Assembly (NCBI GenBank): GCA_965237525.1
Contig: CBDEFO010000004.1
Location: 492,595 to 556,594 of the forward strand
DNA: 64,000 nt
Reading direction: 5' to 3'
Source: Candidatus Latescibacterota bacterium
Lineage (GTDB): Bacteria > Latescibacterota > CBDEFO01
Part shown: piece after piece, positions 19,883 through 38,598 of the stretch
How positions within the stretch are numbered: position 1 is the stretch's first letter
How the letters are laid out: each line of letters opens with the position of its first letter
Program-made: the position numbers and the translations under genes
The notes under the pieces: model-generated
Databases searched by the model: none
What the model was told of the DNA's origin: nothing
The model's input: only the letters and a program-made list of their open reading frames with translations

Positions 19883-20016
19883 TGAAAGAACCTCTCTTGT
19901 TAGCGCGGTGACGTAATGTCTTCTTGCAGTGACCAGGCGCTGTGTCCACTGTGTGGCTCGCTGCTTCCACGGTAGGCCACGAATTGATCGCACTTACATT
20001 GTCTGATAACCCCTGC

Positions 20017-21045: not shown

Positions 21046-21512
21046 GATGTTTCCTCCCTCTCGATAATAGAGAATACCAATCTTTGCATAGTTGTTTAGA
21101 TTCTTTGGACACCCGCCCCATGCACAACGTCTATGAAAGGCTATTTGCGCCGAAGGACGTCCCTGTGCGCCGTCCACAGGCACCGACGCCCCATTAGATC
21201 AGTTTGCCCGCTCTGAGGCGAGGAAGACGACTGCGTGCCACTTCTTCGGTAATTCCAGAAGACAGGCGAAGAACTGCAGGATCTCAAGCTCGTTCAGTGG
21301 CTCCGAATCGTTCCTTTTGAACCGCTCCTACCCTGCATTTTCAGACTAGATCGAGACTGTCCAGACGCTGTTCACGGTGTTCTTATCTGGTGACAACTCC
21401 ACCGCTAGCCCCCTGCCGTGAAGATTCCTGGAAAACCTTGATTGGATTCAGGCTGGTGCTTCTTCTTAGGCTGCTTTACACAACAACTACAGGGGTACAT
21501 CTGAGCATGTTC

Positions 21513-23264
21513 CTACTTTGTCCTGAAGGCAATTTTAAGGTTATCTTCCCGAATATGCACCTGTGATGCGTATTTCTTTCTCAGTCCTTCCAAGAATTGC
21601 TCGAATATCTCCCGCTCCTTCGTTCTCCTTATCTGCCCTCTGACGCGCCTTTTGGCATCCTCAAATGGCTGTCTCTCACGGCGTCTGGATAGAACTTTGA
21701 ATATAGAGTATCCGCCCGCTACCTGGACAGGACCTCCAACGGTAGGATATGTACCCTTAACGTGAACAGGACCTGAAAGCTCCCCTATCTGAGCCTTCTT
21801 CGCAGCTCCCACTATGCCGCCGTATTTTTGGCTTTCGAAAGGATGAAAATGGAATCTGCCTTCTTCGTCCCGCTGGTCTGCAGGACGTGTAGAATGAGCC
21901 CTCGCAAGCTCGCTCAATGGAGCACCTTTTTGGATCTGTTCCATAAGGCTCAACGCCTCTTCCTGCGTCTCTACAAGTATCTCCTGTATATCTATCTTCT
22001 CAGGAAGCAGATACTTATCAGGATTGCTGTCGTAGTACTGTCGCATATCGTCCTCAGTTATGCTTATCTTACCTTCCAGCGCTTGTTCCCTGAGTTCAGA
22101 TATTAAGAACCTTCTTCCTTCGTTCTCAAGCCACCTTGCCGTATCTTCTTCCTTATCCATCCCGGCGCGAAGAGCAGCTTCCAAAATCATTTTGTCGGGA
22201 ATAATGAAACGCTCTGCAAAGGAGGCCAACTGTTCGCTATCTTCAAGAATAGGAAGACCACCTTTACCTTTACGCTCGCTGATAGCTTGAATATCTCTGA
22301 TCACGAAGATAAAGTCCTCTGAGGTTATCTTTCCATCGTCGTATCTGTAGACAACGATGCTCCTATCATCCTGCGTGGGAAGAGATACGCCGCCGCGCAA
22401 CCTTGCTAGGCAGCTCTTTAAGCCTTCCTGATCCAGTTCGAGGCGATATTTTATCTTTAGCTTTTCTACTAAAGCGGCTCTTTCAAGGGTAAGCTTTTTG
22501 TTGTAGAGTGCTTGGTAAATCTCTGAGCTGGGTTGAACTGTACTGTCAGCGGTGGCTTTGAATATCGAATATTTCCTGCCGATCTTTATGGGCTCTGATA
22601 CTTCGCCCACCTTAAGAGAAAATAACTTATCCTGAAGAATGGGGATCAGGCGTACTTTGGTGTGATATAATCCTGAATCGCCGCCCCTGGGTGCAGTCTC
22701 CTCATTAACAGAACGCCGTCGGGCTACCTCCTCAAAGCTCTCCCCCTGTTTGATCTCCTCAAGAGCAGCCCTTGCTTTATCCTCGCTGTCCACCATTATA
22801 TCGCTAAACCTGATCGCCCTAGAGTATTCCGACTTTTCGAATAAGTCCCGTAAGTCCTCTTCTTTTATATCTAGCGCTAATTCCCTTTGTTGAAAGATAC
22901 TTAGGAGCTTTTGTGTTCTGCTCTTATGCATCTTCCTCAGAAAGCGGAGACTCTTATTAATGCCCTTGGCCTTGGCCTCCATCATCAAAAGCTCCATGTC
23001 GATCACCGTCTGTAGATCATTCCTTTGTTTTTCTATCCCTGTTTTTGTGCTCTGGAAATGTAGAGGGACTTCATCGCTAAATTCTTCCAACTGCTTTACA
23101 ATTATCTCCTTATCCCCAACCTGGGCAAGTACCAGATCCTCCTTTTTCCCTGTGCAGCTCATGCTGACAATTAAGAGTGCAATTGGAAACGGCCAGATTC
23201 CAGCAGCTTTTCTTACGACAGAGGCGGTCTTTCGCGCCTTTGCATATATTCTGCAATTGTTCAT
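21513..23264 (-). CDS. SurA/PrsA-like peptidyl-prolyl isomerase, two parvulin domains, probable lipoprotein
   Basis: Signal ending SMSC; VLAQVG; two rotamase motifs (GESFEEVARRRS...GGD.G...VGEVSEPI and LSELARAHS...GELSGPV). Confidence 0.85.
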   Translation of the reverse strand: MNNCRIYAKARKTASVVRKAAGIWPFPIALLIVSMSCTGKKEDLVLAQVGDKEIIVKQLEEFSDEVPLHFQSTKTGIEKQRNDLQTVIDMELLMMEAKAKGINKSLRFLRKMHKSRTQKLLSIFQQRELALDIKEEDLRDLFEKSEYSRAIRFSDIMVDSEDKARAALEEIKQGESFEEVARRRSVNEETAPRGGDSGLYHTKVRLIPILQDKLFSLKVGEVSEPIKIGRKYSIFKATADSTVQPSSEIYQALYNKKLTLERAALVEKLKIKYRLELDQEGLKSCLARLRGGVSLPTQDDRSIVVYRYDDGKITSEDFIFVIRDIQAISERKGKGGLPILEDSEQLASFAERFIIPDKMILEAALRAGMDKEEDTARWLENEGRRFLISELREQALEGKISITEDDMRQYYDSNPDKYLLPEKIDIQEILVETQEEALSLMEQIQKGAPLSELARAHSTRPADQRDEEGRFHFHPFESQKYGGIVGAAKKAQIGELSGPVHVKGTYPTVGGPVQVAGGYSIFKVLSRRRERQPFEDAKRRVRGQIRRTKEREIFEQFLEGLRKKYASQVHIREDNLKIAFRTK

Positions 23265-23311
23265 CTTCCAAAATCTCCTTTTTTGGTAAATCGCGTATAT
23301 CTATTCAGTTC

Positions 23312-25522
23312 TTAATTATTTACAGAATCCTCATTCTTTAGAACGCTCATCTCCTTATAAAGGAGCGCTAATTTGAGACGGACATCGGAATAGTCCGACT
23401 CTATCTTAAGAATCTCTTCGTATTGAGCAGTAGCCTCCTTGTACTTCCCCTTCTCCTTATAGGCAGCAGCCAGATTATAACGGGCATCTAAGTTTTGGGG
23501 CTGGCTCTCTAACAGTCTCGTAAATTCAGCTATTGCCTCGTCCAGCAGCCCCTTCTTGGCATAAACAACGCCCAGATTATTTCGAGCTTCGAGGTAATCT
23601 CCTCCAGTCCGGATGATTTTTCTGTACTCATCCACAGCTGCGTCATAGAGTCCCTTCTTATCGTAGATATACGCTAACTTGAGACGAACCTTTACATTAT
23701 CAGGGTCTAATTTGAGGGCGCTTTCGCACTCATCTTGAGCCCTGTCGTACATGCCTAATTGTATGTAATTCTGCGCTAAGAAAAGACGGGTTTGGATGTA
23801 TCCTTCCACCCACAGGGGTCGGGCAAGCATCAAGCTCGGCCTGGCCTCCGCAACTTTTCTGCTGGCAGCTATAGAATCATCATACATCCCCATTCTTGCA
23901 TAGATGGAACCGAGATTCAGCCATGCCTCCCAATAATCCTCTTTAAGAGAGACAACCTTCTCAAACTCCACGATAGCGCTTGCATGCATTTGCTTGTTCA
24001 TATACATTGTGCCGACGTTATAATGAACCTCAGCATTGTTGACGGTGTCCATCTTTCCGATCTTTGTGTTTGCAGCCAGGGTGAAAAGGACAAACGGCAC
24101 AACGGAAAGACTCAGAGTCAGATAGCGACCGCCTTTAGCGCTCTGGAACCACCACCATATCGTGTAGGCTGCAAAGATCATCAAAAAGGGCAACACTGGA
24201 AGGCGATACCTGGACGTCACCAGAAAAAGGACCACAGAAGCGGCGTAGACTGTAACAAAGATATATAATAGCAGGAGCTTACGCCAACGGGGAAGAGATA
24301 TGATCAGACCCACAAGAGCAAGCGGAGACAAAACCCCAAAGGGGAACGCGATGATCCTCTTCCATACGGAAGCCCACATCAAAGAGGAATTCCCCCTGGA
24401 AAAATAGATTTCCTGATTGCGGCCGATTTCGTTCCCGTTCCAGAATAAAAAGAGCTTCTTACAAAGCAGTTTGAAATACGCTAAGGGCTGGTCTCTGATA
24501 AATTCCCACGCCTTGGAGAAGAAGTATCTCGAACTTTCGGAGTGCTTGTCTATGCCCTTCTCTAAAGGTTCAAAGGAGAGGTTCTCCCACTCCCATCCCG
24601 GTCTGATCCCGACGGTTCGATCGTAGTCAGGGTTGTTACCGATGTAGAAATTTATCCCTGCGTTGTAGGAAATTATGACAAAATCACCGCCTACAACGTA
24701 GTTTCTCAGTGTAACAGTTGAAATCACCAGAAGCCCACCCAGAAGGAAGCTGCCGCACCATACCGCAAATTGTGAAGTTCTGACACCTCTTTCGAGTTTG
24801 GGTTCTGCAGTCTCTATCGTCCCTCTGTCAGCCGACAGAACTGAATCGACGTTTGACCTGGATCCGAACGCTATCCACATCCAGAGCAGGATAAAAGGAG
24901 CAAGTGCTAAAACATTGGGGACCGTAATGGCAGATAGGCCGAAGATGAATCCCGAAAGGAGCCACTTCGAAAGGCGTGGACGTTCAGAAGCCTCTAAAAG
25001 AGACAGAATAAGAAGCAGATCCAAAAAGAGGGCGATGGATGCGGGCAGAAGTTCACAGTCAAAATATATCAAGATGCCGTAAAGTGCACCCAACAGCGAG
25101 GCGATGATACCCACAGACGTATTAAAAAATCGTCTGCTTATCAAAAATATCAGCACACATCCCAAAGAACCGAGTACAATCTGTATCAGGCGAACTGCCC
25201 AGAAGAACTGGTCTTTGAAGATCAGCCGTACTAAAGCCAGAAAGTACGGATAAAAAGGCGGCTGCCAAAAAGGGCCCTTCCCGAAACCGAGCCAGTTTCC
25301 GCCAACTATATCCCTGGCTTGATCTACATAAGTTAATGAGTCTACGACAGGGGAGTCGAAAAGCGGACTATCCGCTACCTGACTGAGATAGAAAAGCCTT
25401 GCTGCCATGGCAATAAGGAAAATGCCTAATGTCTTACTACTGAGGAAGCTCTCAACCCATCCCTTATTCTTCCACACCTGCATATACCGTAGCATAGGCT
25501 GAACTGCCCGTTTTGGGATCAA
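23312..25522 (-). CDS. GT-C fold (PMT/family 39-like) membrane glycosyltransferase with C-terminal TPRs
   Basis: DSLTY.....A, PFWQPPFYPYFLA, many TM helices, N.YIGNNP, SRYRLP, then multiple TPR units; exact start uncertain. Confidence 0.82.
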   Translation of the reverse strand: MIPKRAVQPMLRYMQVWKNKGWVESFLSSKTLGIFLIAMAARLFYLSQVADSPLFDSPVVDSLTYVDQARDIVGGNWLGFGKGPFWQPPFYPYFLALVRLIFKDQFFWAVRLIQIVLGSLGCVLIFLISRRFFNTSVGIIASLLGALYGILIYFDCELLPASIALFLDLLLILSLLEASERPRLSKWLLSGFIFGLSAITVPNVLALAPFILLWMWIAFGSRSNVDSVLSADRGTIETAEPKLERGVRTSQFAVWCGSFLLGGLLVISTVTLRNYVVGGDFVIISYNAGINFYIGNNPDYDRTVGIRPGWEWENLSFEPLEKGIDKHSESSRYFFSKAWEFIRDQPLAYFKLLCKKLFLFWNGNEIGRNQEIYFSRGNSSLMWASVWKRIIAFPFGVLSPLALVGLIISLPRWRKLLLLYIFVTVYAASVVLFLVTSRYRLPVLPFLMIFAAYTIWWWFQSAKGGRYLTLSLSVVPFVLFTLAANTKIGKMDTVNNAEVHYNVGTMYMNKQMHASAIVEFEKVVSLKEDYWEAWLNLGSIYARMGMYDDSIAASRKVAEARPSLMLARPLWVEGYIQTRLFLAQNYIQLGMYDRAQDECESALKLDPDNVKVRLKLAYIYDKKGLYDAAVDEYRKIIRTGGDYLEARNNLGVVYAKKGLLDEAIAEFTRLLESQPQNLDARYNLAAAYKEKGKYKEATAQYEEILKIESDYSDVRLKLALLYKEMSVLKNEDSVNN

Positions 25523-28175
25523 CTCCAGTGACGAACCTTTTGGTCACCCTCAAACCTAACTGGGTTATCAGTTTGTATCCCAAGTAGTCCCCAACGTTGG
25601 AGTATTGCACTGCACCTACGATTTCGGTAAAGTCGTCCAAAAGTCCTTTCTGTACGACGGTATGTTCAGGCTTCATCTGTCGGAAGATCGAATATTCAAC
25701 TCCGGTTTCTATTTCGGAGCGATTAAGCAATGGGAGTTTAGCAAGCAGAAAGAGAATTGTAGTATTTTCTCTTCGTCTAGGATCTGATACGAGCGCCGGA
25801 GATTCTATCCTGAGTTCGTTTTTGATCCGGGGCTGGATATCAAAGACCCCTATCTTAAAGGTATAGTCCACCTTATTGATCAGACCGAAAAAGGTGAACT
25901 TGTCTCTTTTTGGTAGTCCCAGAAGGTCTTCCGGTTCTGCTCTTTGGTCCCACACATCAAATTTTAGCTTGCTGATAATGTTCAGATTTCTTTTCTTTGT
26001 GTAATCAAAACTTACATAGGCCGAATTTATCCAGGTATCTTGCGCCGCCAAAGGATCTGGGGTCGGGACGTTTCTCCCTGCTCTACCTGACGCTACAAAT
26101 GCTGAATCATCCCATTGGAGAAGATCATCTTTTATATTGTCCTTTGCCAACCTAAAACTCTCGAATATCTTCAGCCTACCCAATGCCGGGAAGTCCTTGT
26201 CCAGAGTAATGAGCGCATAGCTTGTCAGGTTGTCCCTATAGTCGGCAAGGAGTTCTTCTCTGTTTTGGCCGATCATAAGTTTTACATCCGGAGTTACATG
26301 AAGACCAACATAAGCGTTGTATCCTCTGTGGTCCCTGTCGTAGGGAAAGTCGGCCTCGGTATCGTTTTCAAACCGATCTACCCATAAATTGTTGTTCATA
26401 TCTATACCGAACAGAAACTCCGGCCGATCTGTCCCGTACCTCAAGAACGGCTCATCGTAGTCAGGCACAGCGTTTGGCCGTTCCCTGCTGTTATTTTGAT
26501 TAAAGTCGGATATAAAGTCCTGGTTCTCATCATAGCCCGGGAATACTGCATCGTCCCGGGATTCGCCTCGCCTATCCCAATCGGGAAATCTGTCCTGATC
26601 GTCGTTGTCTTCCACAAGTTCGTACGTGAAACCCGAAATATTCCCGTAATCTATTTCAAGATCACCTAGTGCCAGAAATGTGGACGTATTATAGTTGTCG
26701 TCCATGCTGTAAGCCTCTCCCAAGAGGAACCACGGATAGTCAATCTTGGATATGTTTACCATCCACCCATCGCCTTCGTCAGAGGCTGTTTCGTGCTCTA
26801 AGTCCTGCCTGTTGGGATATTGTCTGTAACTGAGGCTCCGGTCAAATTCTGCGTAAATATCGAATCCCCAGAGATCGTTCGCCTCCAGCGTTACCCCGTA
26901 TATCTCGGTGCCCGTTGGCAGACCGTAGTCGATCCTGAGGAGCTTCAGATTCGAGCTGTCCTTGGTATTGCCTTTGGCTCTGGCGGCCAATAGATATACG
27001 AAATCGCCACGCCTGTCCAGCTGGCGGTCAGAGGTCACTTCGATCCTGTAATCGTTCCCTACCACCACCTCGAACGTCACCTTCTTTATCTCGGTAGGAT
27101 CAGGGCCTGTATAAGACGCCTCTGTAAAATCGAATATCAGGTCTATCTGTTCAGGTCCGCTGGCCTCCCAGAAACCTCTTCTCTGAAAGCCGCCCTGAGG
27201 AGAAGGGATGAGTCCCACTTTGCTTGCCCTGACTACCTCCCTTTCGATCGTCAGGTTTCCCTCTTCGTCAAATTTTTCAATATCCGCTTCTATGATCAGA
27301 TCCCATGAAAATAGGGCGGCTCCACCCTCCTCATCCTCGGGGGAATCGTCCATAAGCCGTAGGAATAGCCTTTTAATGTTATTGGAATTCTGGCCTGTGG
27401 AGAGCGATCCGCTTCTCGGGCTCCCCTTGAAGCTCTCTATAAGCGTCACAGAGTTGTGAGCGTTCACGTAGGTCGCTCCGATTTTGACAAAATCGCCCAA
27501 TTGGGCTGTTGCCCTCCCCCCTGTCAAGACTGTCTGGCTTGTTCGCCTTTGGCTGGGTACGCCACCCGTACTACTGGGCCGGGCAAGGAGCGCTGTGGCT
27601 TCATATTTATCGGATTGAAAATCAATCTGGATCCCGTTAAACGCAGGCTTTGAAAAGGTCATCGGAGTCAGCGTCGTCCTGATATCATCCCCTATAGTTA
27701 CCGATTGATGGTACTGCCCCTTTTGATCGGAGGCTACCAGTAGGTTGCTGAAGAAGCTTCCGTATCTCAAAGTCTTGAGTATACCGCTTCCGCTCTGCTG
27801 GGGCTGTGACTGGCTCCAGTCGTAGATCAACCATCCCCGGGTGATATAGGAGCCGTAGAGATCGTAGTAATAATCCCCCTCAAGTGTGATGTCCACATAC
27901 CGATCGTAGCGGTCCCGGGCGTAGTTAGTGTACTCCCACTGCTTCCATTGGTACTCCAGGAAGAGCTCCTGCGGGACATACCATTTCTTGACAGCCGGGT
28001 CCAAAGCGTCAAACAGGACACCAGGTCCGGTCGGTTCGAACGAGATCTCCCCCCCCCGACGCACACCTATACGACCCGCGCTGTAATCCTGGGCGTAAGA
28101 GATAGTGTTGAAGATCATCACCGCCCAAACCATAGCCGCACCAACAACACGCGCCTTAGATCTGAAAGTTATCAT
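25464..28175 (-). CDS. Large secreted / probable outer-membrane protein of unknown family
   Basis: Signal peptide ending SYA, Asp-rich Ca-binding-like stretches (DNDDQDRFPDW, DENQDFISD), C-terminal alternating beta-strand pattern. Confidence 0.65.
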   Translation of the reverse strand: MITFRSKARVVGAAMVWAVMIFNTISYAQDYSAGRIGVRRGGEISFEPTGPGVLFDALDPAVKKWYVPQELFLEYQWKQWEYTNYARDRYDRYVDITLEGDYYYDLYGSYITRGWLIYDWSQSQPQQSGSGILKTLRYGSFFSNLLVASDQKGQYHQSVTIGDDIRTTLTPMTFSKPAFNGIQIDFQSDKYEATALLARPSSTGGVPSQRRTSQTVLTGGRATAQLGDFVKIGATYVNAHNSVTLIESFKGSPRSGSLSTGQNSNNIKRLFLRLMDDSPEDEEGGAALFSWDLIIEADIEKFDEEGNLTIEREVVRASKVGLIPSPQGGFQRRGFWEASGPEQIDLIFDFTEASYTGPDPTEIKKVTFEVVVGNDYRIEVTSDRQLDRRGDFVYLLAARAKGNTKDSSNLKLLRIDYGLPTGTEIYGVTLEANDLWGFDIYAEFDRSLSYRQYPNRQDLEHETASDEGDGWMVNISKIDYPWFLLGEAYSMDDNYNTSTFLALGDLEIDYGNISGFTYELVEDNDDQDRFPDWDRRGESRDDAVFPGYDENQDFISDFNQNNSRERPNAVPDYDEPFLRYGTDRPEFLFGIDMNNNLWVDRFENDTEADFPYDRDHRGYNAYVGLHVTPDVKLMIGQNREELLADYRDNLTSYALITLDKDFPALGRLKIFESFRLAKDNIKDDLLQWDDSAFVASGRAGRNVPTPDPLAAQDTWINSAYVSFDYTKKRNLNIISKLKFDVWDQRAEPEDLLGLPKRDKFTFFGLINKVDYTFKIGVFDIQPRIKNELRIESPALVSDPRRRENTTILFLLAKLPLLNRSEIETGVEYSIFRQMKPEHTVVQKGLLDDFTEIVGAVQYSNVGDYLGYKLITQLGLRVTKRFVTGVDPKTGSSAYATVYAGVEE

Positions 28176-28232
28176 AAAGTACCCCCCTTGGTTACGAGCT
28201 AGAACTGCAGAAACTTTTAGATCAGTTAAAAG

Positions 28233-28279
28233 CCCCCGATTGAATCCCCGATTGCTTCTATCGGGGATTCAATCGGGGG
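28233..28279. repeat. Nested mini-palindrome (one copy inside another)
   Basis: CCCCCGATTGAAT-[CCCCGATTGCTTCTATCGGGG]-ATTCAATCGGGGG immediately after the stop of 28280-30022. Confidence 0.9.
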
Positions 28280-30022
28280 TCAATAGACTAAAGATACGGT
28301 TTCTGTTTTACCCTCTGTCACCGTATCTGTTTCTACCTCTACACGAAGAAAATACGATCCAGGGAGCAACAGTTGTCCGTCATCGTCACTCCCGTCCCAA
28401 ACCCGTTTGTATCTACCACTGGAATCATGACCCGAATAGATCTCCTTCCTTAACCTTCCGCTTATATCGTAAATACTTACCGATACCGGGACTATGTCTG
28501 TCAGTTTTAAAATGTCGTAGGTTACAAAGAGGATATCGTTTATTCCATCTCCATTTGGTGTAAAGGGATTGGGCGAGGCCTCTATGGAATGGAGCACGTC
28601 TTCACCCACAGGGATCGTTACGGAAAGGTCATTTCCGGCTGCCAGCGTATCCGAGGCTGCGTCTCCACCTACAACCGCTTGAGGTATCCAATCGGGTCTT
28701 TGGCTATCAGATACCCTTCCACTGAACACAGTGTTAAACTGCAGGGCGACGCTCTCGAAAATTACCCTGAGGATCTTGTCCCCTGTGACCCTCGGAAAGC
28801 GTATTTTGAACCCACCTGTGACATCTGTTTTGTCAATATCAACATCAATTCCATCTATTTGCACCCTTACCACGTCCACCGGCGCCAGGGTCTTTATTTC
28901 GAGGGTGTCGAAGCCTGTGCTGTTAAACGATCTTATCGTGTAGACGAAGGTGGTGTCTTGGGCGATGAGTGTATTTTGCGGCCATATCTCGCCCAATATC
29001 GACTCAGCTAGTGCAGGAGAAACTTCAAATGCGAGCGAATCGACAGTTGTGGCGGACTCAAAATGGTCGCTTTCGAAGAGGATACGAAACTGAAAGAAAC
29101 GGCGCGGTGATGGCGATACAATATCAGATAGGACGCCCGCCGGATAGGGCGGAGACCAATCGCTCCAAACAACGTCGTCGGGACTTGTTCCGCTTCCACT
29201 CCTTGTCGCTACGGTAGCACTCGATTTGGCCCGTTGGCCTATAATCCCCTTGGACCATTCTATACCGCCAAAGACGGAAAACTGTCCCTGGTTGAACATA
29301 TCAAAAGAATTGAATATCTTTGATGTGTACGACGCTGCGGCTACAAAACCTTCACTGAAGACCTGAAACTCGTCTATCTCCCAGTCCGATCTTAGAAGCT
29401 GTTCTATCTCTATACGACGGACATACTGCACTGGGACATCTATATCAACTATCTGCTCCTCGTTGTCAACCACTGACCTAAACAACCTGAACAACGGAGT
29501 CCCTCCTTCGGACGTCTGCTCCTTACTCCCATCGTTTAACTTTATCTGATAGCCTCTCAAGATAAAGTCTTTAAATTCAGGGCCACTTCTTGGGAAAAAC
29601 TTGATTCTGTTGACCGCGAAACGATCGCCCAAATCTATTTTAATTATGATCCCTAAGGCTCGTGTCCCCTTAACTTCAAAAGCCTCAGTCGTATCACCGT
29701 TTACAATCTGCCGTAATCTTTCTTCTATATCTGTATTCTTCATTAAGAGCGCTTTGTCGGCGTTAGGTGACGTTATTGACCCTCCTCTTTCGAATATGCC
29801 CAGGGAAATGTTATCGTTAGGATCAGTCCGTTTAGGTTGAACCGAGCCGGAATCAGTGCCAAAATCGATGACGGATATCTCGGAATATTGTCCGTCCCAG
29901 GGGAGATTGGCCGGGCCTCCCCCTATTATAATCGTCTCGCCATGGACCTGGCTTGTTGGAAGTTCTACTGACACAATAAGAAGGAGTAAGAGCCACGCCT
30001 TTCTATTAAAACAGCTGTCCAT
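28280..30022 (-). CDS. Secreted protein with discoidin-like region and C-terminal FlgD-Ig/CHU_C-like domain
   Basis: Signal peptide; IDLG; PNPFTPNGDGIND...IYDISG...WDG.D..G..LPG.Y. Confidence 0.75.
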   Translation of the reverse strand: MDSCFNRKAWLLLLLIVSVELPTSQVHGETIIIGGGPANLPWDGQYSEISVIDFGTDSGSVQPKRTDPNDNISLGIFERGGSITSPNADKALLMKNTDIEERLRQIVNGDTTEAFEVKGTRALGIIIKIDLGDRFAVNRIKFFPRSGPEFKDFILRGYQIKLNDGSKEQTSEGGTPLFRLFRSVVDNEEQIVDIDVPVQYVRRIEIEQLLRSDWEIDEFQVFSEGFVAAASYTSKIFNSFDMFNQGQFSVFGGIEWSKGIIGQRAKSSATVATRSGSGTSPDDVVWSDWSPPYPAGVLSDIVSPSPRRFFQFRILFESDHFESATTVDSLAFEVSPALAESILGEIWPQNTLIAQDTTFVYTIRSFNSTGFDTLEIKTLAPVDVVRVQIDGIDVDIDKTDVTGGFKIRFPRVTGDKILRVIFESVALQFNTVFSGRVSDSQRPDWIPQAVVGGDAASDTLAAGNDLSVTIPVGEDVLHSIEASPNPFTPNGDGINDILFVTYDILKLTDIVPVSVSIYDISGRLRKEIYSGHDSSGRYKRVWDGSDDDGQLLLPGSYFLRVEVETDTVTEGKTETVSLVY

Positions 30023-30048
30023 TAAATCTATACCTCCCTCAATAAAAA

Positions 30049-32886
30049 CTAATATGCAACGTGCACTAACCGGATGACAGAAGTATCTTCTACCGAACCT
30101 GAATCGGAATCAACATTAATCCTTATAATATATATACCGAGAGGCACTAAGTCTCCTGACTTATCAACGCCAGCCCAGGTCACTGTATATCTCCCAGAAG
30201 GTAGAGAATCATTGAGCAATTCACGCACTATATTGCCGCTAAGATCGTATATCTGCACCTGAACAGTAGTTGGTGATCCCACACGCAACACCGAAAAGCT
30301 TATCGACGTCTCATCGTTGATCCCATCACCATTCGGTGTAATTATCTCAGGATCTACCACAATATTGTCTAATATCTTATTTCCTTCAAGGGCTAATACT
30401 ATTGTCCTTTCACTGTCTGTAACGCCGTTTGCATCTCCGTCATCCACCCGTTGCCATGAACGCGGTACGGAAGAGCTGCCGATAAAGCCGTCAAAAAATG
30501 TGCTGAATCCAAATAACTGCGCTTCAAACTTGACCTCCAATAGAACATTACGCGTAGTCGTCTTTATAACATCTGGCAGATGAACCCACAGAGAATCGGA
30601 CGGATCGGGCTTATCTTTAGGTAAAACATCAAAACCTTCGCTTTCTTCTGTATAACTTTCATCAGGTTCCCTCAGAAGGCCATTTATGATCATGTCTTCA
30701 ATGCTTTCATCCTCCCACTTATTGACCTGCTTGAAGTTCATCCTGACTCCAGGAGGCGCTTCAATAAGGATCTCATCGAACTCCTGGTCGTCGGAATCGA
30801 ACGTCGGACGGATGAAATAGGAAAACTCCTGATTGACACCCAGCTCATCCAGACGGGTGGGTTTTATCTCGCCGACGACATTTGCAGCCACAGGATTTAG
30901 GAAATTAAGTGTCAATGAACGCAAAGTGGCCGACTGGAAAGGATCATCCGTCAATAACGTAGCCCTGATCGTAACGAATCTTCTGGGACTCGGAGACGTG
31001 ATCTTATCCCCCGGATGCTCATAGCGCTGGCTCCACCCGCTCCAGTCACTCCCCGGGAGGATGTCAGCAACTATGGGCCCCACCTCAAAGTTCGTGTTTT
31101 TATCGACCAGCCATTTTCGACAGAGCTTTTGGTCAATGACATCCTCGCCTTTGCTGCAGACGTCTTTCAGGGTGGGTGTGATTGGATCTCTCTTTTTCCA
31201 AAATAGGTCAACCTTCTTTTCATATTGTTCTTTGGGCGATTCGCCCCTTCTATTCGTCGTAAATTCTTTCTTCTTGCCTATGTCAAAGTAGCGGTATTCC
31301 GTCTCTGACGTATCCCCTGTCTTTGTCTGAATGAAAACATCTGTGCCTGGCGGAGTATCTGCATCCCACTCTATGGAAACCAGATTCTTTGAAGTCCCCA
31401 GCTCGATAAAGGGAGCACCTTCTTCAAAGACAGACTCGATCTGGGTCTCCGCCACGAAGCCCTCTCCGAATAATTGTATCTCCGCTAATCCTGCGGGTGT
31501 TCCTCCGCCGGTTGTAACCGCTGCTAATTGTGCTATGAACGCGGTGGTAAATTTGAAAAATCTTACTTTGGTAAGCTCGAAATTGTGGTTGTGAAATGCA
31601 TCTTCGCTGCCTATACCACTCTTCGACGCCACAGTTTTAAAGAGTACACTACCGTCGGCACCCCTGGAGCCGTCCGAAACCTTCAGGAAGTATGCTCCAA
31701 ATCCACTGGGAGGCTGAGTGATTGACATGATCACCCGGGCGTTATCTAAAAAGAAAGCGCCTCCAAGGTCTATAAACAAGTCGCGCTCGACATCCAGAGG
31801 CTCATTCGGCGGTATAGATTCGATTGAAAAACCTTGTTTGCCCAACCAGACATCTGTGAGATCGCCATTGACTATACGCTCTTCATTCCTGTTTTCAAGG
31901 CTACTTAAAGCACCACCACGATCTATTACGCCCAAAGCGACGTTGTCCCCAATTGACCAGACCTCCAACTCAGCCAGCCTCGGAAGCTCCCGACGGTAAT
32001 GGACTACAGGACCTCGTTTGCTCTCATCTAAAGCCTCCCAGAGTTCTTTCCCCGACAGCAACCTTAACCTTCCCGATGCTGCCTTTCTGAAGTACTCTAC
32101 ATCTCCCCTTCTGTTGGACTCCAGACTCTCAAACGTAGCCTTGGAGACCTGCCTCGCCTTTCCGAAATCGCTACCCGCTATCGCAACTTGCACATATCTG
32201 ATAGCGTCGCCGCTAAATTCTTCAATTTTTTCAGCTGAAGCAGCAGGAGATCGTGGCCCGCCCCGGATATGTTTACTCGTCAGAGTCAATTCGACCTCAA
32301 CGACCCTCTCATCCTTGAGCTTCTTTTCGGTAACAAAGACTTGTCTGTATCTAAGAATTCTATTGTCCACTAACCCCTGAGACGTGAGGACTTTAAAGAG
32401 CAAAAATGGATCTCCAAGATCATCCCCGACGAACTTGAGGACAACCTTGGTGGCGGATACAGCCCGTCCCAGATCTATCTGCACCCACCAATCCTCTATG
32501 CGATCATCCCTGTCCGGCTCCCAGAAGGTGTCCATTCTACCATCCAAAAGGTCGGAGACCTTTGAAGGGTTAGAACCTGCCGCCAAGTCGAGGTTATCTC
32601 CTCCAAACTCACTTGCGTTCAAGGAAGCGTTGATGCCGGGAACTCTCACGATCCGGCCATCTATCTCTATTTCTGTGCTCTTGTGTATGAACCCAGGTCT
32701 TACCCCCTCATCGGTGACCTGGATCGACTTTGCAGCAGCCTTCCAGCGGGACCAATGCTCTTCCGAATCTATGACGACCCTGTTGCCTTCGATAGAATAT
32801 CCCAACTGCTGAGCCCAGACGACCGAGTCTTTCAAGAGTACCCCCCAAGCTATTGCAAATAATAGACAAACTATTCTCCACTTCAT
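30049..32886 (-). CDS. Secreted protein with discoidin-like regions and C-terminal FlgD-Ig/CHU_C-like domain
   Basis: GGAGG RBS before MKWRIV signal peptide; LDG...T.W, WVQIDLG; ITPNGDGIND...IYDLSG...W.G.D..G..VP.G.Y. Confidence 0.75.
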   Translation of the reverse strand: MKWRIVCLLFAIAWGVLLKDSVVWAQQLGYSIEGNRVVIDSEEHWSRWKAAAKSIQVTDEGVRPGFIHKSTEIEIDGRIVRVPGINASLNASEFGGDNLDLAAGSNPSKVSDLLDGRMDTFWEPDRDDRIEDWWVQIDLGRAVSATKVVLKFVGDDLGDPFLLFKVLTSQGLVDNRILRYRQVFVTEKKLKDERVVEVELTLTSKHIRGGPRSPAASAEKIEEFSGDAIRYVQVAIAGSDFGKARQVSKATFESLESNRRGDVEYFRKAASGRLRLLSGKELWEALDESKRGPVVHYRRELPRLAELEVWSIGDNVALGVIDRGGALSSLENRNEERIVNGDLTDVWLGKQGFSIESIPPNEPLDVERDLFIDLGGAFFLDNARVIMSITQPPSGFGAYFLKVSDGSRGADGSVLFKTVASKSGIGSEDAFHNHNFELTKVRFFKFTTAFIAQLAAVTTGGGTPAGLAEIQLFGEGFVAETQIESVFEEGAPFIELGTSKNLVSIEWDADTPPGTDVFIQTKTGDTSETEYRYFDIGKKKEFTTNRRGESPKEQYEKKVDLFWKKRDPITPTLKDVCSKGEDVIDQKLCRKWLVDKNTNFEVGPIVADILPGSDWSGWSQRYEHPGDKITSPSPRRFVTIRATLLTDDPFQSATLRSLTLNFLNPVAANVVGEIKPTRLDELGVNQEFSYFIRPTFDSDDQEFDEILIEAPPGVRMNFKQVNKWEDESIEDMIINGLLREPDESYTEESEGFDVLPKDKPDPSDSLWVHLPDVIKTTTRNVLLEVKFEAQLFGFSTFFDGFIGSSSVPRSWQRVDDGDANGVTDSERTIVLALEGNKILDNIVVDPEIITPNGDGINDETSISFSVLRVGSPTTVQVQIYDLSGNIVRELLNDSLPSGRYTVTWAGVDKSGDLVPLGIYIIRINVDSDSGSVEDTSVIRLVHVAY

Positions 32887-32914
32887 AACAAAACACCTCC
32901 AGCTTGTAATGCAC

Positions 32915-35020
32915 TTAATAGACAACAGAGACAGTGCCGCTCTCAGTCTCCTCTTGCTCAGCCTCCACCGATAAGCGGTACAGATATATCCCGGGCGGAA
33001 CGAAATTATTGTCGCTGTCTGTCCCATCCCAAACCTGGGCATCTTCTCCTGTATATTCTCCTGCGGGATCAACTCCAGAATACACGTTCTTTATAAGGAG
33101 ACCGGATAGATCGTATATATCTACTGAGACCGGAACAGGAGCGGTCACCTTCAAAAGGTCATAAGATATCTTCAACTCATCGTTGATACCATCCCCATTG
33201 GGTGTGAAGGGGTTTGGTTCAACCTCAACGGAGGAGAACAGCGGTGCGTCCAAAGCCGTAATTACAGAAAGAACATCGCTTTCTATCTCATCTGCCGCAT
33301 TACCCTCCTTGATCCTCTGACGGACCTCGTGCGGCAGGTCGCTGTCAAACACCCTGCCGTCAAAAATGGTACCGCGCTCCATCAAAACAGGAGCGTTGAA
33401 GACGATTTCAATTAGAGATCCACTGTCTTCTATCTCCATCTTCCTCGGCAACTTAACCTCAAAGCCGTCTTCCCTTAGCATCAGGGTAAAATCTTCCCGA
33501 TTAATGTTGATGCCATCTATTCTGAGCGAATCGACCGAAGTAACCCCAAAAGGCGTTAAAATCTCCACGCTATCGAATCCTGTATCGCCAACTCTGATCT
33601 CCGAATTGATAAAATAAGTAAACTGTACCGGCTTTGCTATCTCGACCTCCACTGGGAATATCTCACCTACTACAGTCGAAGCCGCAGGAGTCACAGACGC
33701 TTTAAATTGTAAATAGTCGATCTTGCCCCCGTCCTGACCAAAAGAGAAAAAATCCACCTTTATCTGAAAGAACTTGCGGGGGCCCGGAGAAAATATGTCT
33801 GTTCCCGGACTTTCAAAAACGTAAGGTTGTGACCAGAAGCTCCAGTTTTGCGTATCGTGAGTAACTCCACCTTGAGTAGTGGGCAACATCTTATCGTATA
33901 CTTGTTTGTACTCCTTTGAACTGAGCTCTACTCCTTGCTGATTGGTCGAAGGAAGAACTGCCAACGTTTGCTGCGCCAGTAAGAGTTCCCAGTAGACGTC
34001 CGGTTGGGGATCCTTTCCGCTCCTTGTTCTGATCTCAACGCTGGCTTTGGGATCACGTCTCCCCGACCAGCTGATCTCTCCCAAAGTGGCGCTCTTATCC
34101 AACTCAATTATGTCAGCTATATAAGAGGCCTCAGGTACAAAGCCCGGTCCGAGGACTTCAATCTCAGCGAGCTCTATCGCCTTTTGCGATGTCTGCCAGA
34201 TCAACAACCCCAGATAAGCGACCCTCTGGCGTGGCTGAAAGGTGAAGCTAACTACAGGAGAAAGATTGTTAACCGGCACATGCCTTACTCTCTCCGGGTG
34301 AGTGTAATTGGGAAAATTTGGGAAGTCCGGGATGGACTGTGATCCTCGACACAACTGTCCCTTGCGATTCCCTCCGCCCATCCCTCCTGGTCCAGGATCA
34401 CTGAAACCCTCGAAATCCTCCGGGAGGCCTTGGCTGAGACCCAATTCGTACTCCGGCAAAAAGCGCTCCGGATGTTCCTGACGAGGGGAGAATCTTACTT
34501 CATTCACGAGAAATAGTCCACCTAAGAAAATAACCACCCGCCCACTGGCCCCAGAACATCTTGCGCCCCCTCGGTTTGTCCCCTGAGGCCACACATAAGC
34601 CGTGGTAGGATCCCCATCTAATAGGTTATTCCCCACGTTTCCTTCGATTTGAAATCCCTCACTCGAGCCTGGCGCCTCCAGTCCTTGGGTACCCATCCTC
34701 ACCCATCCTCCTCTGTCCAGAGCCGTTATGGCTATGCTCTCACCCTCAGCCGTAAACTTGGGTTGAATTGAGCCGGCATCCCCCACCTTCAGGGAATCCA
34801 CGTCGAGGCTATTCACCGACTCATAATCTTTCCAGCCGATCTCCCTGAAATCGAGCCCTATCTCCAGGAGACTGTCCTTTTCTACAGGTGAAAAGGGGCG
34901 TCCGATTCTATAGATAATCGCAGAGGAGGCGTCATCTACAAAGATAATCATGCCCATGAACGCAAGCACAATCAATCCTGTCAGCTTACATAAAATACTA
35001 CCTACTGTGGATGCCAGCAA
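32915..35020 (-). CDS. Secreted protein with C-terminal FlgD-Ig/CHU_C-like domain
   Basis: Signal peptide; LLDGDPTT; PNPFTPNGDGIND...WDGTD...VPPGIY; paralog of the two downstream genes. Confidence 0.75.
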   Translation of the reverse strand: MLASTVGSILCKLTGLIVLAFMGMIIFVDDASSAIIYRIGRPFSPVEKDSLLEIGLDFREIGWKDYESVNSLDVDSLKVGDAGSIQPKFTAEGESIAITALDRGGWVRMGTQGLEAPGSSEGFQIEGNVGNNLLDGDPTTAYVWPQGTNRGGARCSGASGRVVIFLGGLFLVNEVRFSPRQEHPERFLPEYELGLSQGLPEDFEGFSDPGPGGMGGGNRKGQLCRGSQSIPDFPNFPNYTHPERVRHVPVNNLSPVVSFTFQPRQRVAYLGLLIWQTSQKAIELAEIEVLGPGFVPEASYIADIIELDKSATLGEISWSGRRDPKASVEIRTRSGKDPQPDVYWELLLAQQTLAVLPSTNQQGVELSSKEYKQVYDKMLPTTQGGVTHDTQNWSFWSQPYVFESPGTDIFSPGPRKFFQIKVDFFSFGQDGGKIDYLQFKASVTPAASTVVGEIFPVEVEIAKPVQFTYFINSEIRVGDTGFDSVEILTPFGVTSVDSLRIDGININREDFTLMLREDGFEVKLPRKMEIEDSGSLIEIVFNAPVLMERGTIFDGRVFDSDLPHEVRQRIKEGNAADEIESDVLSVITALDAPLFSSVEVEPNPFTPNGDGINDELKISYDLLKVTAPVPVSVDIYDLSGLLIKNVYSGVDPAGEYTGEDAQVWDGTDSDNNFVPPGIYLYRLSVEAEQEETESGTVSVVY

Positions 35021-35091
35021 CCTTCACCTCCGTAGGAGCAAATCACTGCAGGCCTTTGCGTCTGGAACAGCGGCCCAAAGACTCTGCTAAC

Positions 35092-35127
35092 AAGAAAGAA
35101 GGGGAGCGGTAACATTCGCCCCCCCTC
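35092..35127 (-). terminator. Rho-independent terminator-like hairpin
   Basis: GGGGGCGAATGTTACCGCTCCCC followed by TTCTTTCTT after 35152-36087; duplicated at 37622-37657. Confidence 0.55.
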
Positions 35128-35151
35128 CAGACATCTGATCGTCATCCTCCT

Positions 35152-36087
35152 CTAGTTTTTGTTGAAGCTGGACTTGATGCGACCCCATGTGTCAGACTCA
35201 ACTGCAGTGACAGTCACCCATTGATCCGGATCAAAAGAAAGCATGATGAAGTCGTTGAAGAAGTCAGTATTCTGGTTAAGCGTTGTCGAGCCTCCGTTGC
35301 TCGTGTAGTTACCACCACCCGATGTAACCATGCCACAGCAGCGCTCAAGATTGTCAGCGTCTTGAACTTGAAATCCTATTCCCATGACGGCGTTATTTTC
35401 ACCATCTTCCTGTGTAAATTGGTGTACAACGCTCGTCTCTATACCTGCAGGATCCAGATCGTCAAACACCGTCACGCCCATCTCCACAATCAGGGTGCCC
35501 GGGTCACCCAGGTCGCCATCAAAGCTCCAGCCAAACGCCGCATAAGGAGCCACGTTTACCCACGTAGCGTTTCCCCAATGCCAGACAGGATCCTCTCGGA
35601 TCACAAAATAGCGATAATTCTGTGCGTGAGATCCGTTCCACCTGTCTCCATCCAGGTCCACTGTTTGCATGCGCATGTACTGTCCCCCGCTGTGGTCGGC
35701 ATCGATGCCAAGCTCAACCGACTCCTGAGGGGAATCTTTTGCCCAACCGACATAGACATCGTCAAATCTATCCTCAAACCAGTAAACCTTGTTGGTTATC
35801 GGACTCCACCCTATGATTATCCTCTCGGCGAGGTCAGCGGCGTTCACACCCTGCTCATTCTGGTTCTCTACCAAGTCTTCGTGAGTTATCCAGAACGCCG
35901 GGTCAACATTTGCCCACTCGCTGGGGTCACCGTCGTGTACAAGCCTCTGGGTGTTAGGGAGTATCCCCACAGTCCCATCAATGGGCACCTGGACAGCGAA
36001 AAAGTCCTCGCCCAAGTGAGCATAACTAAAGGAAGCCGCCAGAAGGAGGAATCCCAGTCCTAGTACAATCGAAAGTATCTTCTTCAT
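35152..36087 (-). CDS. Secreted acidic DOMON/CBM9-like protein with C-terminal TAVESDTWGRIK tail, copy A
   Basis: Signal peptide ending SYA; DGDPSEW, IDADHSGG; tail TAVESDTWGRIKSSFNKN. Domain call is tentative. Confidence 0.7.
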   Translation of the reverse strand: MKKILSIVLGLGFLLLAASFSYAHLGEDFFAVQVPIDGTVGILPNTQRLVHDGDPSEWANVDPAFWITHEDLVENQNEQGVNAADLAERIIIGWSPITNKVYWFEDRFDDVYVGWAKDSPQESVELGIDADHSGGQYMRMQTVDLDGDRWNGSHAQNYRYFVIREDPVWHWGNATWVNVAPYAAFGWSFDGDLGDPGTLIVEMGVTVFDDLDPAGIETSVVHQFTQEDGENNAVMGIGFQVQDADNLERCCGMVTSGGGNYTSNGGSTTLNQNTDFFNDFIMLSFDPDQWVTVTAVESDTWGRIKSSFNKN

Positions 36088-36241
36088 TTTGTTAACCCTC
36101 TCGTTTAAGATGATTAACTCCTACTACCAAAACATTACACTACAACTCTTGTCGCTCCTTTCTACTACCTCCCTTTGCGTTTACCATGTTCCAAATCGAT
36201 GTCTTGACACCACCCCCTTTATTTATTATGACTTTCTGAAT

Positions 36242-36495
36242 TAGGTCAAAACAGTTCAAATAGTTTCAATAAAGTGCTCGCCTACTATATAGTATGGCTT
36301 GTACGACAACCTGTGAAATCATAGTTAGCACCACATACCAAACATCAGGCAACTGAATATACTAATATCTCTTTTGCATGTCAAGGCTTTTTTTGATAGA
36401 ACTGAAGAATAAAGGGCAAATGCTATCCATATACCAAAAACCGGACGGTTGAATATACTAATACCTCTTTTTCATGTCAAGGATTTTTTTGATAG
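36242..36495 (-). promoter_or_regulatory. Repeated promoter/leader unit (one full, one partial)
   Basis: TTGACA-17-TATATT at 36384-36356 and 36480-36452; homologous to 38764-39104. Confidence 0.75.
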
Positions 36496-36502
36496 GTTGT
36501 AT

Positions 36503-36906
36503 TGTACTGGCATACCGTTCCCCTTGACAGAGCGACAAAGAATTTGCAAATTGGGGTTTGAGAAGGGAGGTTAAGGTGTCAAGCCCCAAGGTGGAAGATG
36601 GTAAGCGTTGGACATCTGGTCGTAAGGCAGAGGTCGTGTTGGCTCTTTTAAGAGGAGCGGATCTATCTGAGGTGTGTCGGAGGAATGGAATTAGCCAGTC
36701 GCAGGCGTATGCTTGGCGTGATAGTTTCTTAGAAGGGGGCCAGGAGAGTCTGAAGTCTCGGCGTGGTGGCAGGCATCCGAAGGAGCGGGAGGTCAGTCGG
36801 TTGGAGCGCAAGGTAGGGCAGTTAACCCTCCAGTTGGAGATACTCGAGGAGGTAGCCCGTCTAAAAAAAAGGAAGCGGTTGCCTTGAGTGGGCGGTTTTT
36901 GGGTCG
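36503..36906 (+). mobile_element. IS3-family fragment (left end plus orfA, truncated)
   Basis: ORF 36558-36887 has an HTH/leucine-zipper pattern (RW....K..VV...L.G....EVCRR.GI....Y.W...F; RLERKVGQL) and an A8G shift-like run at 36863-36871; orfB missing. Confidence 0.7.
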
Positions 36907-37301
36907 AGGTTATTCCCCACGTTGCCTGCGATTTCATATCCCTCACGCGAGCCTGGCTTCTCCAGTCCTTGCGTATTCATGGTTACCCATCCTTCTCTGT
37001 CCAGAGCCGTTATGGCTATGCTCTCACCCTCAGCCGTAAACTTGGGTTGAATTGAGCCGGCATCCCCCGCCTTCAGGGAATCCACGTCGAGGGTATTCAC
37101 CGACTCATAATCTTTCCAGCTGATCTCCCTGAAACCGAGCCCTATCTCCAGGAGACTGTCCTTTTCTGCAGGTGAAAAGGGGCGTCCGATTCTATAGATA
37201 ATCGCAGAGGATGCGTCATCTACAAACATAATCATGCCCATCAAGGCAAGCAGAATCAATCCTGTCAGCTTACATAAAATACTACCTACTGTTGATGCCA
37301 A
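36907..37301 (-). pseudogene. 5' fragment duplicating gene 32915-35020
   Basis: About 130 N-terminal codons near-identical (ASTVGSILCKLTG...GNVGNNL), then cut at the IS3 fragment. Confidence 0.9.
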
Positions 37302-37621
37302 CAGCTTTCACCTCCGTATGGTAAATCCTTGCCGTGCTCTACAATACTTTTGTTCTGATTCAGCAACCCATTTTCAGGATATTTTTTCTTTAGTTCCTGA
37401 TAATAGCTACGAATCTATCTTGTGTCAGTTTCAAATTCCTTCATTTTCTCAACGGAGGTAATTTTGTCCCCCATTCGGTGCGTATAGATAATCTTTTCCG
37501 TGTTGGGTTGCCTTTCAAATATTAGATATTTTCGAGGATCCCTAATCATAAATCAACAGGAGAATATCGCAACAGGGATTTACGTCTACGTCCGGAACAG
37601 CGGCCCAAAGATTCTGCTAAC

Positions 37622-37657
37622 AAGAAAGAAGGGGAGCGATAACATTCGCCCCCCTCC
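37622..37657 (-). terminator. Rho-independent terminator-like hairpin
   Basis: Copy of 35092-35127. Confidence 0.55.
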
Positions 37658-37680
37658 AGACATCTGATCGTCATCCTCCT

Positions 37681-38598
37681 CTAGTTTTTGTTGAAGCTGG
37701 ACTTGATGCGGCCCCAGGTGTCAGACTCAACTGCTGTCACTGTCACCCATTGATCCGGATCATAAGAAAGCAGCGTGAAGTCGTTGAAGAAGTCAGTATC
37801 CTGGTTAAGCGTTGTCGAGCCACCGTTGCTCGTGTAGTAGCCACCACCCGTTGCCATCATGCCGCAGCAATCTACAAGATTGTCAGCGTCCATAACAGCA
37901 AATCCCATTCCAATGACGTAATTGTCGCCATGTTCCGGTAAAAAATCGTGTACAACGCTCGTGCCAATACCTCCTGCAGAATCCAGATCGTCAAACACCG
38001 TCACGCCCATCTCCACAATCAGGTTACCCGAGTTACCCAGTTCGCCGCCATCGAAGCTCCAGCCGATCTCCGCATAAGGAGCCACGTTTACCCACGTAGC
38101 GTTTCCCCAATGCCAGACAGGATCCTCTCGGAAGAAAAAATAGCGATATTGCTGTGCATGTTTTCCGTCGAAAATCGCTGGGTCCAGCTCTGAATGATTC
38201 ATGTACCGTCCGCCGCTGTGGTCAGCATCGGTGCCCCACTCAACGCCCTCCTGAGGGAAATCTGATACCCCATTGACAAAGACATCGTCAAATCTATCCT
38301 CAAACCAGTAAATCTTGTCGGTCTCAGGACTCCATCCTATGATTATCCTCTCGGCGAGGTCAGCGGCGTTCACGCCCTGCTCATTCATGTTCTCTACCAG
38401 GTCCTCGTGCGTTATCCAGAACGCCGGGTCAACATTTGCCCACTCGGCTGGGTCACCGTCGTGCACAATATTCATTCTGTCCATCGTGCTGATCGGCAAC
38501 TGTACAGCGAAAAAGTCCTCGCCCAAGTGAGCATAACTCATAGAAGCGGCGAACATGACAATTCCCAGCGCTACGCATATAACAATTGTCTTCTTCAT
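37681..38598 (-). CDS. Secreted acidic protein with C-terminal TAVESDTWGRIK tail, copy B
   Basis: Paralog of 35152-36087 with identical C-terminal tail. Confidence 0.7.
   Translation of the reverse strand: MKKTIVICVALGIVMFAASMSYAHLGEDFFAVQLPISTMDRMNIVHDGDPAEWANVDPAFWITHEDLVENMNEQGVNAADLAERIIIGWSPETDKIYWFEDRFDDVFVNGVSDFPQEGVEWGTDADHSGGRYMNHSELDPAIFDGKHAQQYRYFFFREDPVWHWGNATWVNVAPYAEIGWSFDGGELGNSGNLIVEMGVTVFDDLDSAGGIGTSVVHDFLPEHGDNYVIGMGFAVMDADNLVDCCGMMATGGGYYTSNGGSTTLNQDTDFFNDFTLLSYDPDQWVTVTAVESDTWGRIKSSFNKN

Follow-up and report, generated by a model that had tools for sequence, protein, structure and literature searches.

We analysed a window of DNA (the whole stretch of 64,000 nucleotides (nt), positions 492595-556594 of contig C4 of its source genome, G000, a Candidatus Latescibacterota bacterium) that carries a run of envelope genes on its minus strand. 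They encode two secreted W proteins, three secreted C proteins, a predicted outer-membrane barrel protein (B), a GT-C glycosyltransferase (GT) and a two-parvulin peptidyl-prolyl isomerase (PPIase). The run is a single copy of a cassette conserved in Latescibacterota, apparently an undescribed envelope module. The genes are grouped in the same way in relatives, the three C proteins form a fixed trio, and B co-occurs across genomes with a membrane-anchored TonB-like DUF4159 protein. A first-pass annotation had taken the locus to be devoted to export, folding and glycosylation of surface proteins. Our preferred reading, which we hold tentatively and regard as quite possible, is that the cassette serves surface capture and energised uptake as part of a motor-powered nutrient-capture machine, and this is likely the better of the two accounts.

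The grouping was compared in the best 80 of 606 confirmed loci, which come from the close barrel clade only (46-85% identity), many of them from related genomes; loci of at least 20 kb form a full-length subset of 60. The named homologues and loci indicate Latescibacterota. Of the 79 loci with an upstream gene, 78 have a C gene as the immediate upstream neighbour of B, and the single exception is an artefact of overlapping open reading frames (ORFs). W genes are present in 67, PPIase genes in 58 and GT genes in 16 of the 80 loci (56, 53 and 13 of the 60 full-length loci, respectively). Exactly three C genes occur in 53 of the 60, and 13 of the 80 share the full order W-C-C-C-B-(GT)-PPIase. The gene order, on which the first-pass annotation had made its proposal depend, is thus conserved in relatives. 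The elements of the cassette in the window are as follows, in the direction of transcription.

38878-39076, minus strand: two tandem sigma-70-type promoter-like sites 5' of the first W gene (12/12 and 11/12 consensus matches)
37681-38598, minus strand: W protein 1, 305 amino acids (aa), secreted, predicted CBM9-like, with a TWGRIK tail; a terminator-like hairpin follows at 37628-37657
36861-37301, minus strand: truncated duplicate of the 701-aa C gene, a 146-aa fragment 84% identical over 141 aa
36558-36887, plus strand: transposase helix-turn-helix remnant, recognised by domain matches, that interrupts the duplicate
36356-36480, minus strand: two promoter-like sites 5' of the gene of W protein 2 (11/12 consensus matches each)
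35152-36087, minus strand: W protein 2, 311 aa, with 73% identity to W protein 1; a terminator-like hairpin follows at 35097-35128
32915-35017, minus strand: C protein of clade M, about 700 aa, with a WSxWS sandwich and a CHU_C/FlgD-like tail
30049-32883, minus strand: C protein of clade L, 944 aa from its likely start, with a weak discoidin match and a CHU_C/FlgD-like tail
28280-30022, minus strand: C protein of clade U, 580 aa, with a CBM32-like domain (about residues 76-226) and the tail (about residues 475-580)
28233-28279, minus strand: 20-pair hairpin, a genome-wide repeat with 103 blastn pieces in the genome
25464-28175, minus strand: B protein, predicted outer-membrane barrel, 903 aa, about 24 strands, with a conserved N-terminal segment (residues 44-109), an inserted beta-sandwich (242-418) and an acidic loop (492-615)
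23312-25522, minus strand: GT-C (PMT_2) glycosyltransferase with C-terminal tetratricopeptide repeats (TPRs), optional; start uncertain, the ORF overlapping the barrel gene by about 59 nt
21513-23264, minus strand: two-parvulin SurA/PrsA-type PPIase, likely a lipoprotein, with two rotamase domains; a usual member

The C proteins are a fixed trio, not interchangeable cargo. All five shared motifs recognised by the first-pass annotation (the set of WS.WS.PY...I.SP.PRRF, GEI.P, Q....G.A and TPNGDGIND) are present in all three paralogues, with PY exact in two and replaced by QRY in the third. A tree of 169 C proteins from the 60 full-length loci, built on the C-terminal 330 residues and leaving out proteins shorter than 520 aa or lacking the aromatic end, resolves three deep groups, M, L and U (support 0.99 and 0.95 for two of them, a weak 0.52 for the other). 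One C protein of each clade is present in five cassette subtypes, and two further subtypes are only partly captured. Thus the trio is older than the cassette copies. Clade U is the C type that usually adjoins the barrel gene on its upstream side. Orphan C genes also occur in the own genome, far from any barrel; just upstream of one of them and a W-like gene is an operon that, read by eye, is Bat/vWA-like (G000 C8:1955210-1971646).

The C proteins are predicted to be CBM32-like, lectin-like, sugar-binding proteins. Specifically, the C-family profile matches CBM32/discoidin structures (best E 2.6e-5) and FlgD in the PDB, and Arg145 is conserved in 89% of the family. The WSxWS motif is conserved in 97-100%. 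The model of the 580-aa C protein is a confident all-beta chain (predicted local distance difference test score, pLDDT, 91), for which Foldseek with the whole model returns generic beta-sandwich chains only (template-modelling score, TM, up to 0.21).

The C-terminal tails are type-B-like, as had been proposed. All three C proteins pass the CHU_C (PF13585) cut-off of 27 (42.6, 30.4 and 38.0 bits), two of the three pass the FlgD_ig Pfam cut-off, and all three are below the TIGR04131 cut-off of 35 (24.2, 16.5 and 26.2 bits). They belong to a class apart from the 47 ORFs of the own genome with a type-A-like motif; 17 ORFs carry TPNGDG.ND, 16 of them ending in VY or AY. The profile search suggested in the first-pass annotation recovered SprA (751.7 bits, cut-off 200), PorU (709.7 bits, cut-off 420) and PorV beside SprA, which makes type IX export of the C proteins plausible, and about ten small PorV/PorP-like barrels are encoded in the genome. 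GldK gives only partial matches far under its cut-off, and GldL, GldM and GldN have no match in this assembly (96.6% complete), in searches whose controls were likewise silent. SprA is present in 39 of the 41 genomes of the phylum, including 13 without B.

The arrangement resembles type B cargo and its PorP/SprF partner (SprB-SprF, PG1035-PorP) in the tail motif, in the cargo gene lying directly upstream of a barrel gene and in the occurrence of SprA, PorU and PorV in the same genome. According to PMC12618676, Bacteroidota often have a porP/sprF gene immediately after the type B cargo gene; PorP/SprF proteins are described as 14-strand barrels that anchor type B cargo (PMC9143113), and a Gld-based energy chain is set out in PMC12635249. 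The cassette differs from these systems in having a barrel of about 24 strands and 903 aa versus 14 strands and about 300 aa, with no PorP homology, in having three fixed paralogues per copy, and in its tails, which end in V.[VA]Y; GldL, GldM and GldN also belong to the differences, as not found.

The B protein is predicted to be an outer-membrane barrel and not a soluble enzyme, as the AlphaFold2 model, the Foldseek and VIA structural searches and the strand links all indicate. The model, built on 82 sequences, has a mean pLDDT of 68 and a pTM (predicted TM) of 0.65. It contains 24 strands whose links alternate strictly between long (20, 11, 15, 177, 10, 124, 5, 34, 14, 8, 15 and 5 residues) and short (2, 3, 3, 2, 2, 2, 3, 5, 6, 2 and 2 residues), which resembles outer-membrane barrels. 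By the usual topology of such barrels, the beta-sandwich and the acidic loop are predicted to face outward, and the N-terminal segment would be inside the barrel or periplasmic. Conservation is highest in the acidic core (0.72) and the N-terminal segment (0.68), compared with 0.48 in the C-terminal strands, but the model is poor in both of these parts.

No close structural match to B was recovered. Foldseek returned other outer-membrane barrels only, none of them close (TM 0.14-0.26). The VIA search likewise returned only outer-membrane barrels, the best being SlpA/OmpM of Deinococcus (Z 13.5, root-mean-square deviation (rmsd) 7.7, 419 aligned), tied with several porins; the usher PapC aligns with Z 11.5 and rmsd 6.0 over 315 residues. 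The 903-aa protein has no match among Pfam and NCBIfam families, and PDB sequence searches with barrel profiles gave no match with one alignment and two chance matches with another. SlpA/OmpM is a 30-strand barrel with an N-terminal SLH anchor. Its SlpA_C domain is matched weakly by 5 of 36 aligned B members and by 12 of 49 mostly distant ones, always below the cut-off and over about 90 residues. Membership of B in this family was rejected, as the best SlpA_C score is 30.2 bits (cut-off 35), B has no SLH match, and Foldseek TM values are 0.18-0.24. An assignment of B as a SprA/Sov fragment was also rejected (hhalign probability 0.3). DUF6029, which is the nearest named Atlas cluster (0.88), is a lead only, with 0 of 36 members matching it.

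The suggestion that B is PorP/SprF-like does not hold, since it has about 24 strands, none of 36 family members matches PF11751 or TIGR03519, and the hhalign probability to a small PorV-like barrel is 0.1. None of the 36 members matches Plug (PF07715) or TonB_dep_Rec either, which sets B apart from TonB-dependent transporters with their 22 strands and Plug; the own genome has four Plug matches, none of which is a B gene. The B family comprises 1,006 representatives at 50% identity, fragments included, and is present in 27 of the 41 genomes. The own genome has four B genes in three loci, and four relatives have 49-108 B matches each, an expansion like that of substrate-specific importers.

The strongest outside link of the B family points beyond export and display, to an ExbB/ExbD/TonB-like motor. 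In distant relatives, motor operons consist of C, a small barrel, two or three B, a giant TPR protein, ExbB, ExbD, ExbD and a DUF4159 arm. The arm has a TonB-like layout, in which a single anchor at the N-terminus is combined with a basic linker and a head formed by DUF4159. This domain was found in 18 of 18 arms and TonB_C in none of the 18. Among the 41 genomes, 25 have both B and the arm, 14 have neither and two (both <80% complete) have the barrel only, so that 39 agree. In the 25 genomes with both, copy numbers correlate (rho 0.70). On contig C2 of genome G003, every listed arm (11 of 11) has a B gene less than 5 kb away (rotation mean 0.56), one arm on contig C1 being outside this count. 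Among 18 hand-picked arm-centred loci from the top of the list, 13 have B, 15 the giant TPR protein and 11 ExbB/D. At locus L135, three C genes and a 41%-identical barrel of the close clade are joined directly to TPR-ExbB-ExbD-DUF4159, and in five motor operons (L037, L039, L040, L132 and L134) a small PorV/PorP-like barrel directly follows the C gene, with the big barrels next.

Transport and catabolic genes recur in the neighbourhood. Apart from the cassette genes themselves, the most frequent neighbour encodes a DUF6785 membrane protein (37 of 80 loci). In the top-150 lists of four related genomes, DUF6785 lies within 12 kb of 47 of 120 listed B loci, with 13.6 expected (maximum 31 in 1000 rotations), and a TonB-receptor control shows no excess (9 of 88, 10.1 expected). 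ABC sugar-transport genes flank 9-10 of the 80 loci, all of one subtype. Directly downstream of the cassette, and also in the sister genome, lie five tandem mandelate racemase/enolase-family genes (window 14654-21183, minus strand). A genome study of Latescibacterota reports a sugar-degrading lifestyle, porins and TonB receptors (PMC4454575).

We favour uptake because the barrel is pore-sized, the lectin-like head is fixed, a motor arm tracks the barrel, the copies number in the dozens, and transport and catabolic genes lie nearby. In the mechanism that we propose, the type-B-like tails would route the three C proteins through the SprA translocon and would probably be handled by a single small PorV/PorP-like barrel from a separate site. 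The C proteins would then attach to B as a capture head of three parts. The W proteins, whose genes have promoters and terminators of their own, would be abundant sugar-binding partners. B would be a gated uptake pore capped by the C trio and opened by a motor encoded elsewhere; specifically, the ExbB/ExbD motor would pull the conserved N-terminal segment of B via the DUF4159 arm, and a glycan or sugar-acid substrate would thereby enter the periplasm. The PPIase would fold the large beta proteins, and the GT, in some copies only, would glycosylate one component.

Several observations weigh against uptake. Motor genes are found in none of the 80 closest loci, so the motor would have to act in trans here; a Ton-like link between the barrel and a motor bearing a single-anchor arm is seen for the family and not within this cassette. 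The agreement between B and the arm does not amount to 41 independent tests, since it rests mainly on two families without both. The sister genome has a 5.7-kb TPR-ExbB-ExbD-DUF4159 block between two direct-repeat small barrel genes (L130:3363-12011), and the own assembly has one merged barrel copy without it (G000 C8:1741307-1743307). Contigs of two runs that contain the window cover the block at about 96% identity, which makes assembly collapse, or deletion in part of the population, likely. Residues 20-100 of B have pLDDT <50, leaving the N-terminal segment unplaced in the model, and with no Plug match the gating of B is conjecture. Ordinary TonB receptors also persist in the same genomes, with 16-29 Plug matches. 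For the W proteins, support from the CBM9_1 hidden Markov model is weak (2 of 10 members at E up to 0.1, best E 0.019). A transporter role for DUF6785 is our inference, with no PDB or NCBIfam relative, and across genomes DUF6785 does not track B (18 both, 9 barrel only, 13 DUF6785 only and 1 neither). DUF6785 was accordingly rejected as a core partner at the genome level and retained as a local association, and its assignment as an OPT-like transporter has no PDB support. The family is highly expanded in G000 and G041-G044, with 15-78 matches per genome.

For the uptake reading, a close comparison is with the Ton system and SusCD utilisomes (PMC7618045). Shared features are a large barrel with surface sugar-binding partners, many paralogous loci, an ExbB/ExbD motor with a single-anchor arm, and transport and catabolic genes nearby. 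The cassette differs in that B has no TonB-receptor or Plug match, the C partners bear secretion tails and have no SusD match, and the arm lacks TonB_C. A bolder claim, which we consider possible and somewhat less probable than uptake as such, is that the cassette belongs to a separately evolved second class of importer driven by the proton motive force. It would consist of a non-TonB-receptor 24-strand barrel, a DUF4159-tipped ExbB/ExbD arm and a heterotrimeric lectin head, which would reach the surface through a type IX translocon without the Gld motor. With up to about 100 copies per genome it would be the phylum's counterpart of SusCD loci.

If the uptake reading is right, an outer-membrane machine named in no database, with up to about 100 barrel matches per genome, feeds a widespread uncultured phylum. 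Three orphan families, the B barrel, DUF4159 and possibly DUF6785, would gain roles, and type IX secretion would be used for building transporter lids. The missing matches to GldL, GldM and GldN, with their silent controls, raise the question of what powers SprA. In the searched literature, which misses most subscription papers, DUF6785 was not found, DUF4159 appeared only in the Pfam family paper, Latescibacterota and type IX secretion were not found together, and broader searches gave no title or abstract start on this system.

The proposal of a GT-C glycosyltransferase with TPRs as a core part of the locus holds for the enzyme class and not for its place in the cassette. The protein matches PMT_2 (E 5.6e-14) and TPRs, has 10 hydrophobic segments, and carries the first-loop Asp invariant in 11 of 11 aligned sequences. 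It thus resembles TMTC/PMT and ArnT-like PMT_2 enzymes (PMT_2 domain, about 10 membrane segments, first-loop Asp, TPR tail) and differs from TMTC/PMT in having no PMT or TMTC-domain match among the listed families. The 60 listed PDB matches of its profile include TPR matches only and no solved GT-C structure. The GT is accessory, since 18 of the 19 closest loci lack it and nine B-free genomes carry a relative at 32-38% identity. Where present it tends to stand next to the barrel: 10 of 16 GT genes within the 80 loci, and 7 of 7 close GT genes in B-bearing genomes, are directly downstream of B. WSxWS as a tryptophan C-mannosylation site for the adjacent GT was set aside, since the motif is kept in loci mostly without GT and the GT matches PMT_2. 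C-mannosyltransferases belong to another GT-C branch. The two-parvulin PPIase, in contrast to the GT, is a usual cassette member (53 of 60 full-length loci), and its two rotamase domains were confirmed. Its lipobox is non-canonical here (MSC), and 9 of 19 orthologues pass the strict pattern.

The alternative that survives best, which follows the first-pass annotation and which we think unlikely, makes B an oversized counterpart of PorP/SprF that would collect type-B-tailed adhesins from SprA and hold them on the surface, with the help of its own chaperone and, in the copies that have the GT, of protein glycosylation. Such a role would fit the C gene directly upstream of B, which matches the type B cargo-porP/sprF order given in PMC12618676, the lack of a small PorV/PorP-like barrel in any of the 80 loci and the position of the close GT genes directly after B. 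It is opposed by the lack of homology between B and PorP/SprF, by the motor operons, in which the small barrel and not B directly follows the C gene, and by the fixed trio, and mere anchoring leaves the link to the motor arm unexplained. Moreover, in the model, B with its roughly 24 strands is far wider than an anchor needs. If anchoring were nevertheless correct, type B sorting would extend beyond Bacteroidota with a new barrel.

Improbable, in our estimate, is a role of B itself as an SprA-independent export pore, with ExbB/ExbD driving secretion or surface assembly of the three C proteins. The strand number equals that of an usher such as PapC, another motor may be needed if GldL, GldM and GldN are missing from the own genome, and one 96%-complete genome (G014, locus L039) has three tandem B genes and a C-like gene with no SprA match at E 1e-20. 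The Gld searches, however, had silent controls, SprA is present in 26 of 27 barrel-bearing genomes, and orphan C genes lie far from any barrel in the own genome. The 13 genomes that have SprA and lack both B and the DUF4159 arm argue that the motor is not a general type IX motor.

More improbable still is a force-transmitting envelope or surface-motility machine resembling Agl-Glt of Myxococcus, with the C trio as its adhesin. The core operon, with a proton motor, TonB-like arm, giant TPR protein and two or three barrels, would suit such a machine. However, no Glt family match was found beyond generic TPR matches, and dozens of paralogous cassettes per genome beside transport and catabolic genes fit substrate diversity better. 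A chance run of unrelated envelope genes, to which the insertion-sequence (IS) remnant and tandem duplication inside the run and the optional GT might have pointed, is hardly credible and largely refuted by the recurrence of the exact order and of the trio.

The W proteins, which on the uptake reading would be sugar-binding partners, are predicted from sequence to be CBM9-like. Their nearest Atlas clusters (0.93-0.97) have 13-100% CBM9_1, and the PDB matches include no CBM9 structure. Both W proteins (ORFs 37681-38598 and 35152-36087) end in TWGRIKSSFNKN, confirming the secreted proteins with a WGRIK tail that had been described. Across the genome's ORFs, TWGxIK is present 22 times within the final 25 residues and 3 times internally, an enrichment of about 50-fold at the C-terminus; none of the 22 has a PNPFN or PNGDG tail motif, and the tail is a separate, unexplained C-terminal tag. 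Both W genes have near-consensus promoters 5' and terminator-like hairpins 3', patterns suggesting that W is more abundant than the rest of the cassette. Over the region as a whole, promoter-like sites are just as numerous as in the shuffle mean. Behind the promoters is a leader of about 150 nt (window 39076-38740 and 36480-36240, minus strand) in three full copies and one partial copy, with repeats 85-86% identical, and a further partial copy occurs at G000 C8:139182-139274. The repeated leader could be an operator array or a structured leader.

All ORFs of the first-pass annotation are present on the minus strand, with the positions and domains it gave. Its "one co-oriented run" is correct in that the genes share a strand; the run is interrupted by the transposase remnant on the plus strand and by a truncated gene copy. 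Specifically, the first W gene and the 146-aa fragment arose by tandem duplication and match the second W gene and the beginning of the 701-aa gene at 81-93% DNA identity. The likeliest start of the 701-aa ORF (32915-35020) is 35017, and that of the 1007-aa ORF (30049-33072) is 32883, giving 944 aa; both lie behind GGAGG. The hairpin before the barrel gene was rejected as a locus-specific element, given its genome-wide pieces.

Other families recur beside cassettes (L042-L059, L090-L118), namely ASPIC/UnbV proteins, membrane proteins with a spermidine-synthase domain, GDSL-TPR proteins and a second PMT_2-TPR family. Upstream of the cassette, an IS1182-like transposase split into two ORFs (window 39237-40638, plus strand) has many copies in the genome, several of them beside cassette loci.

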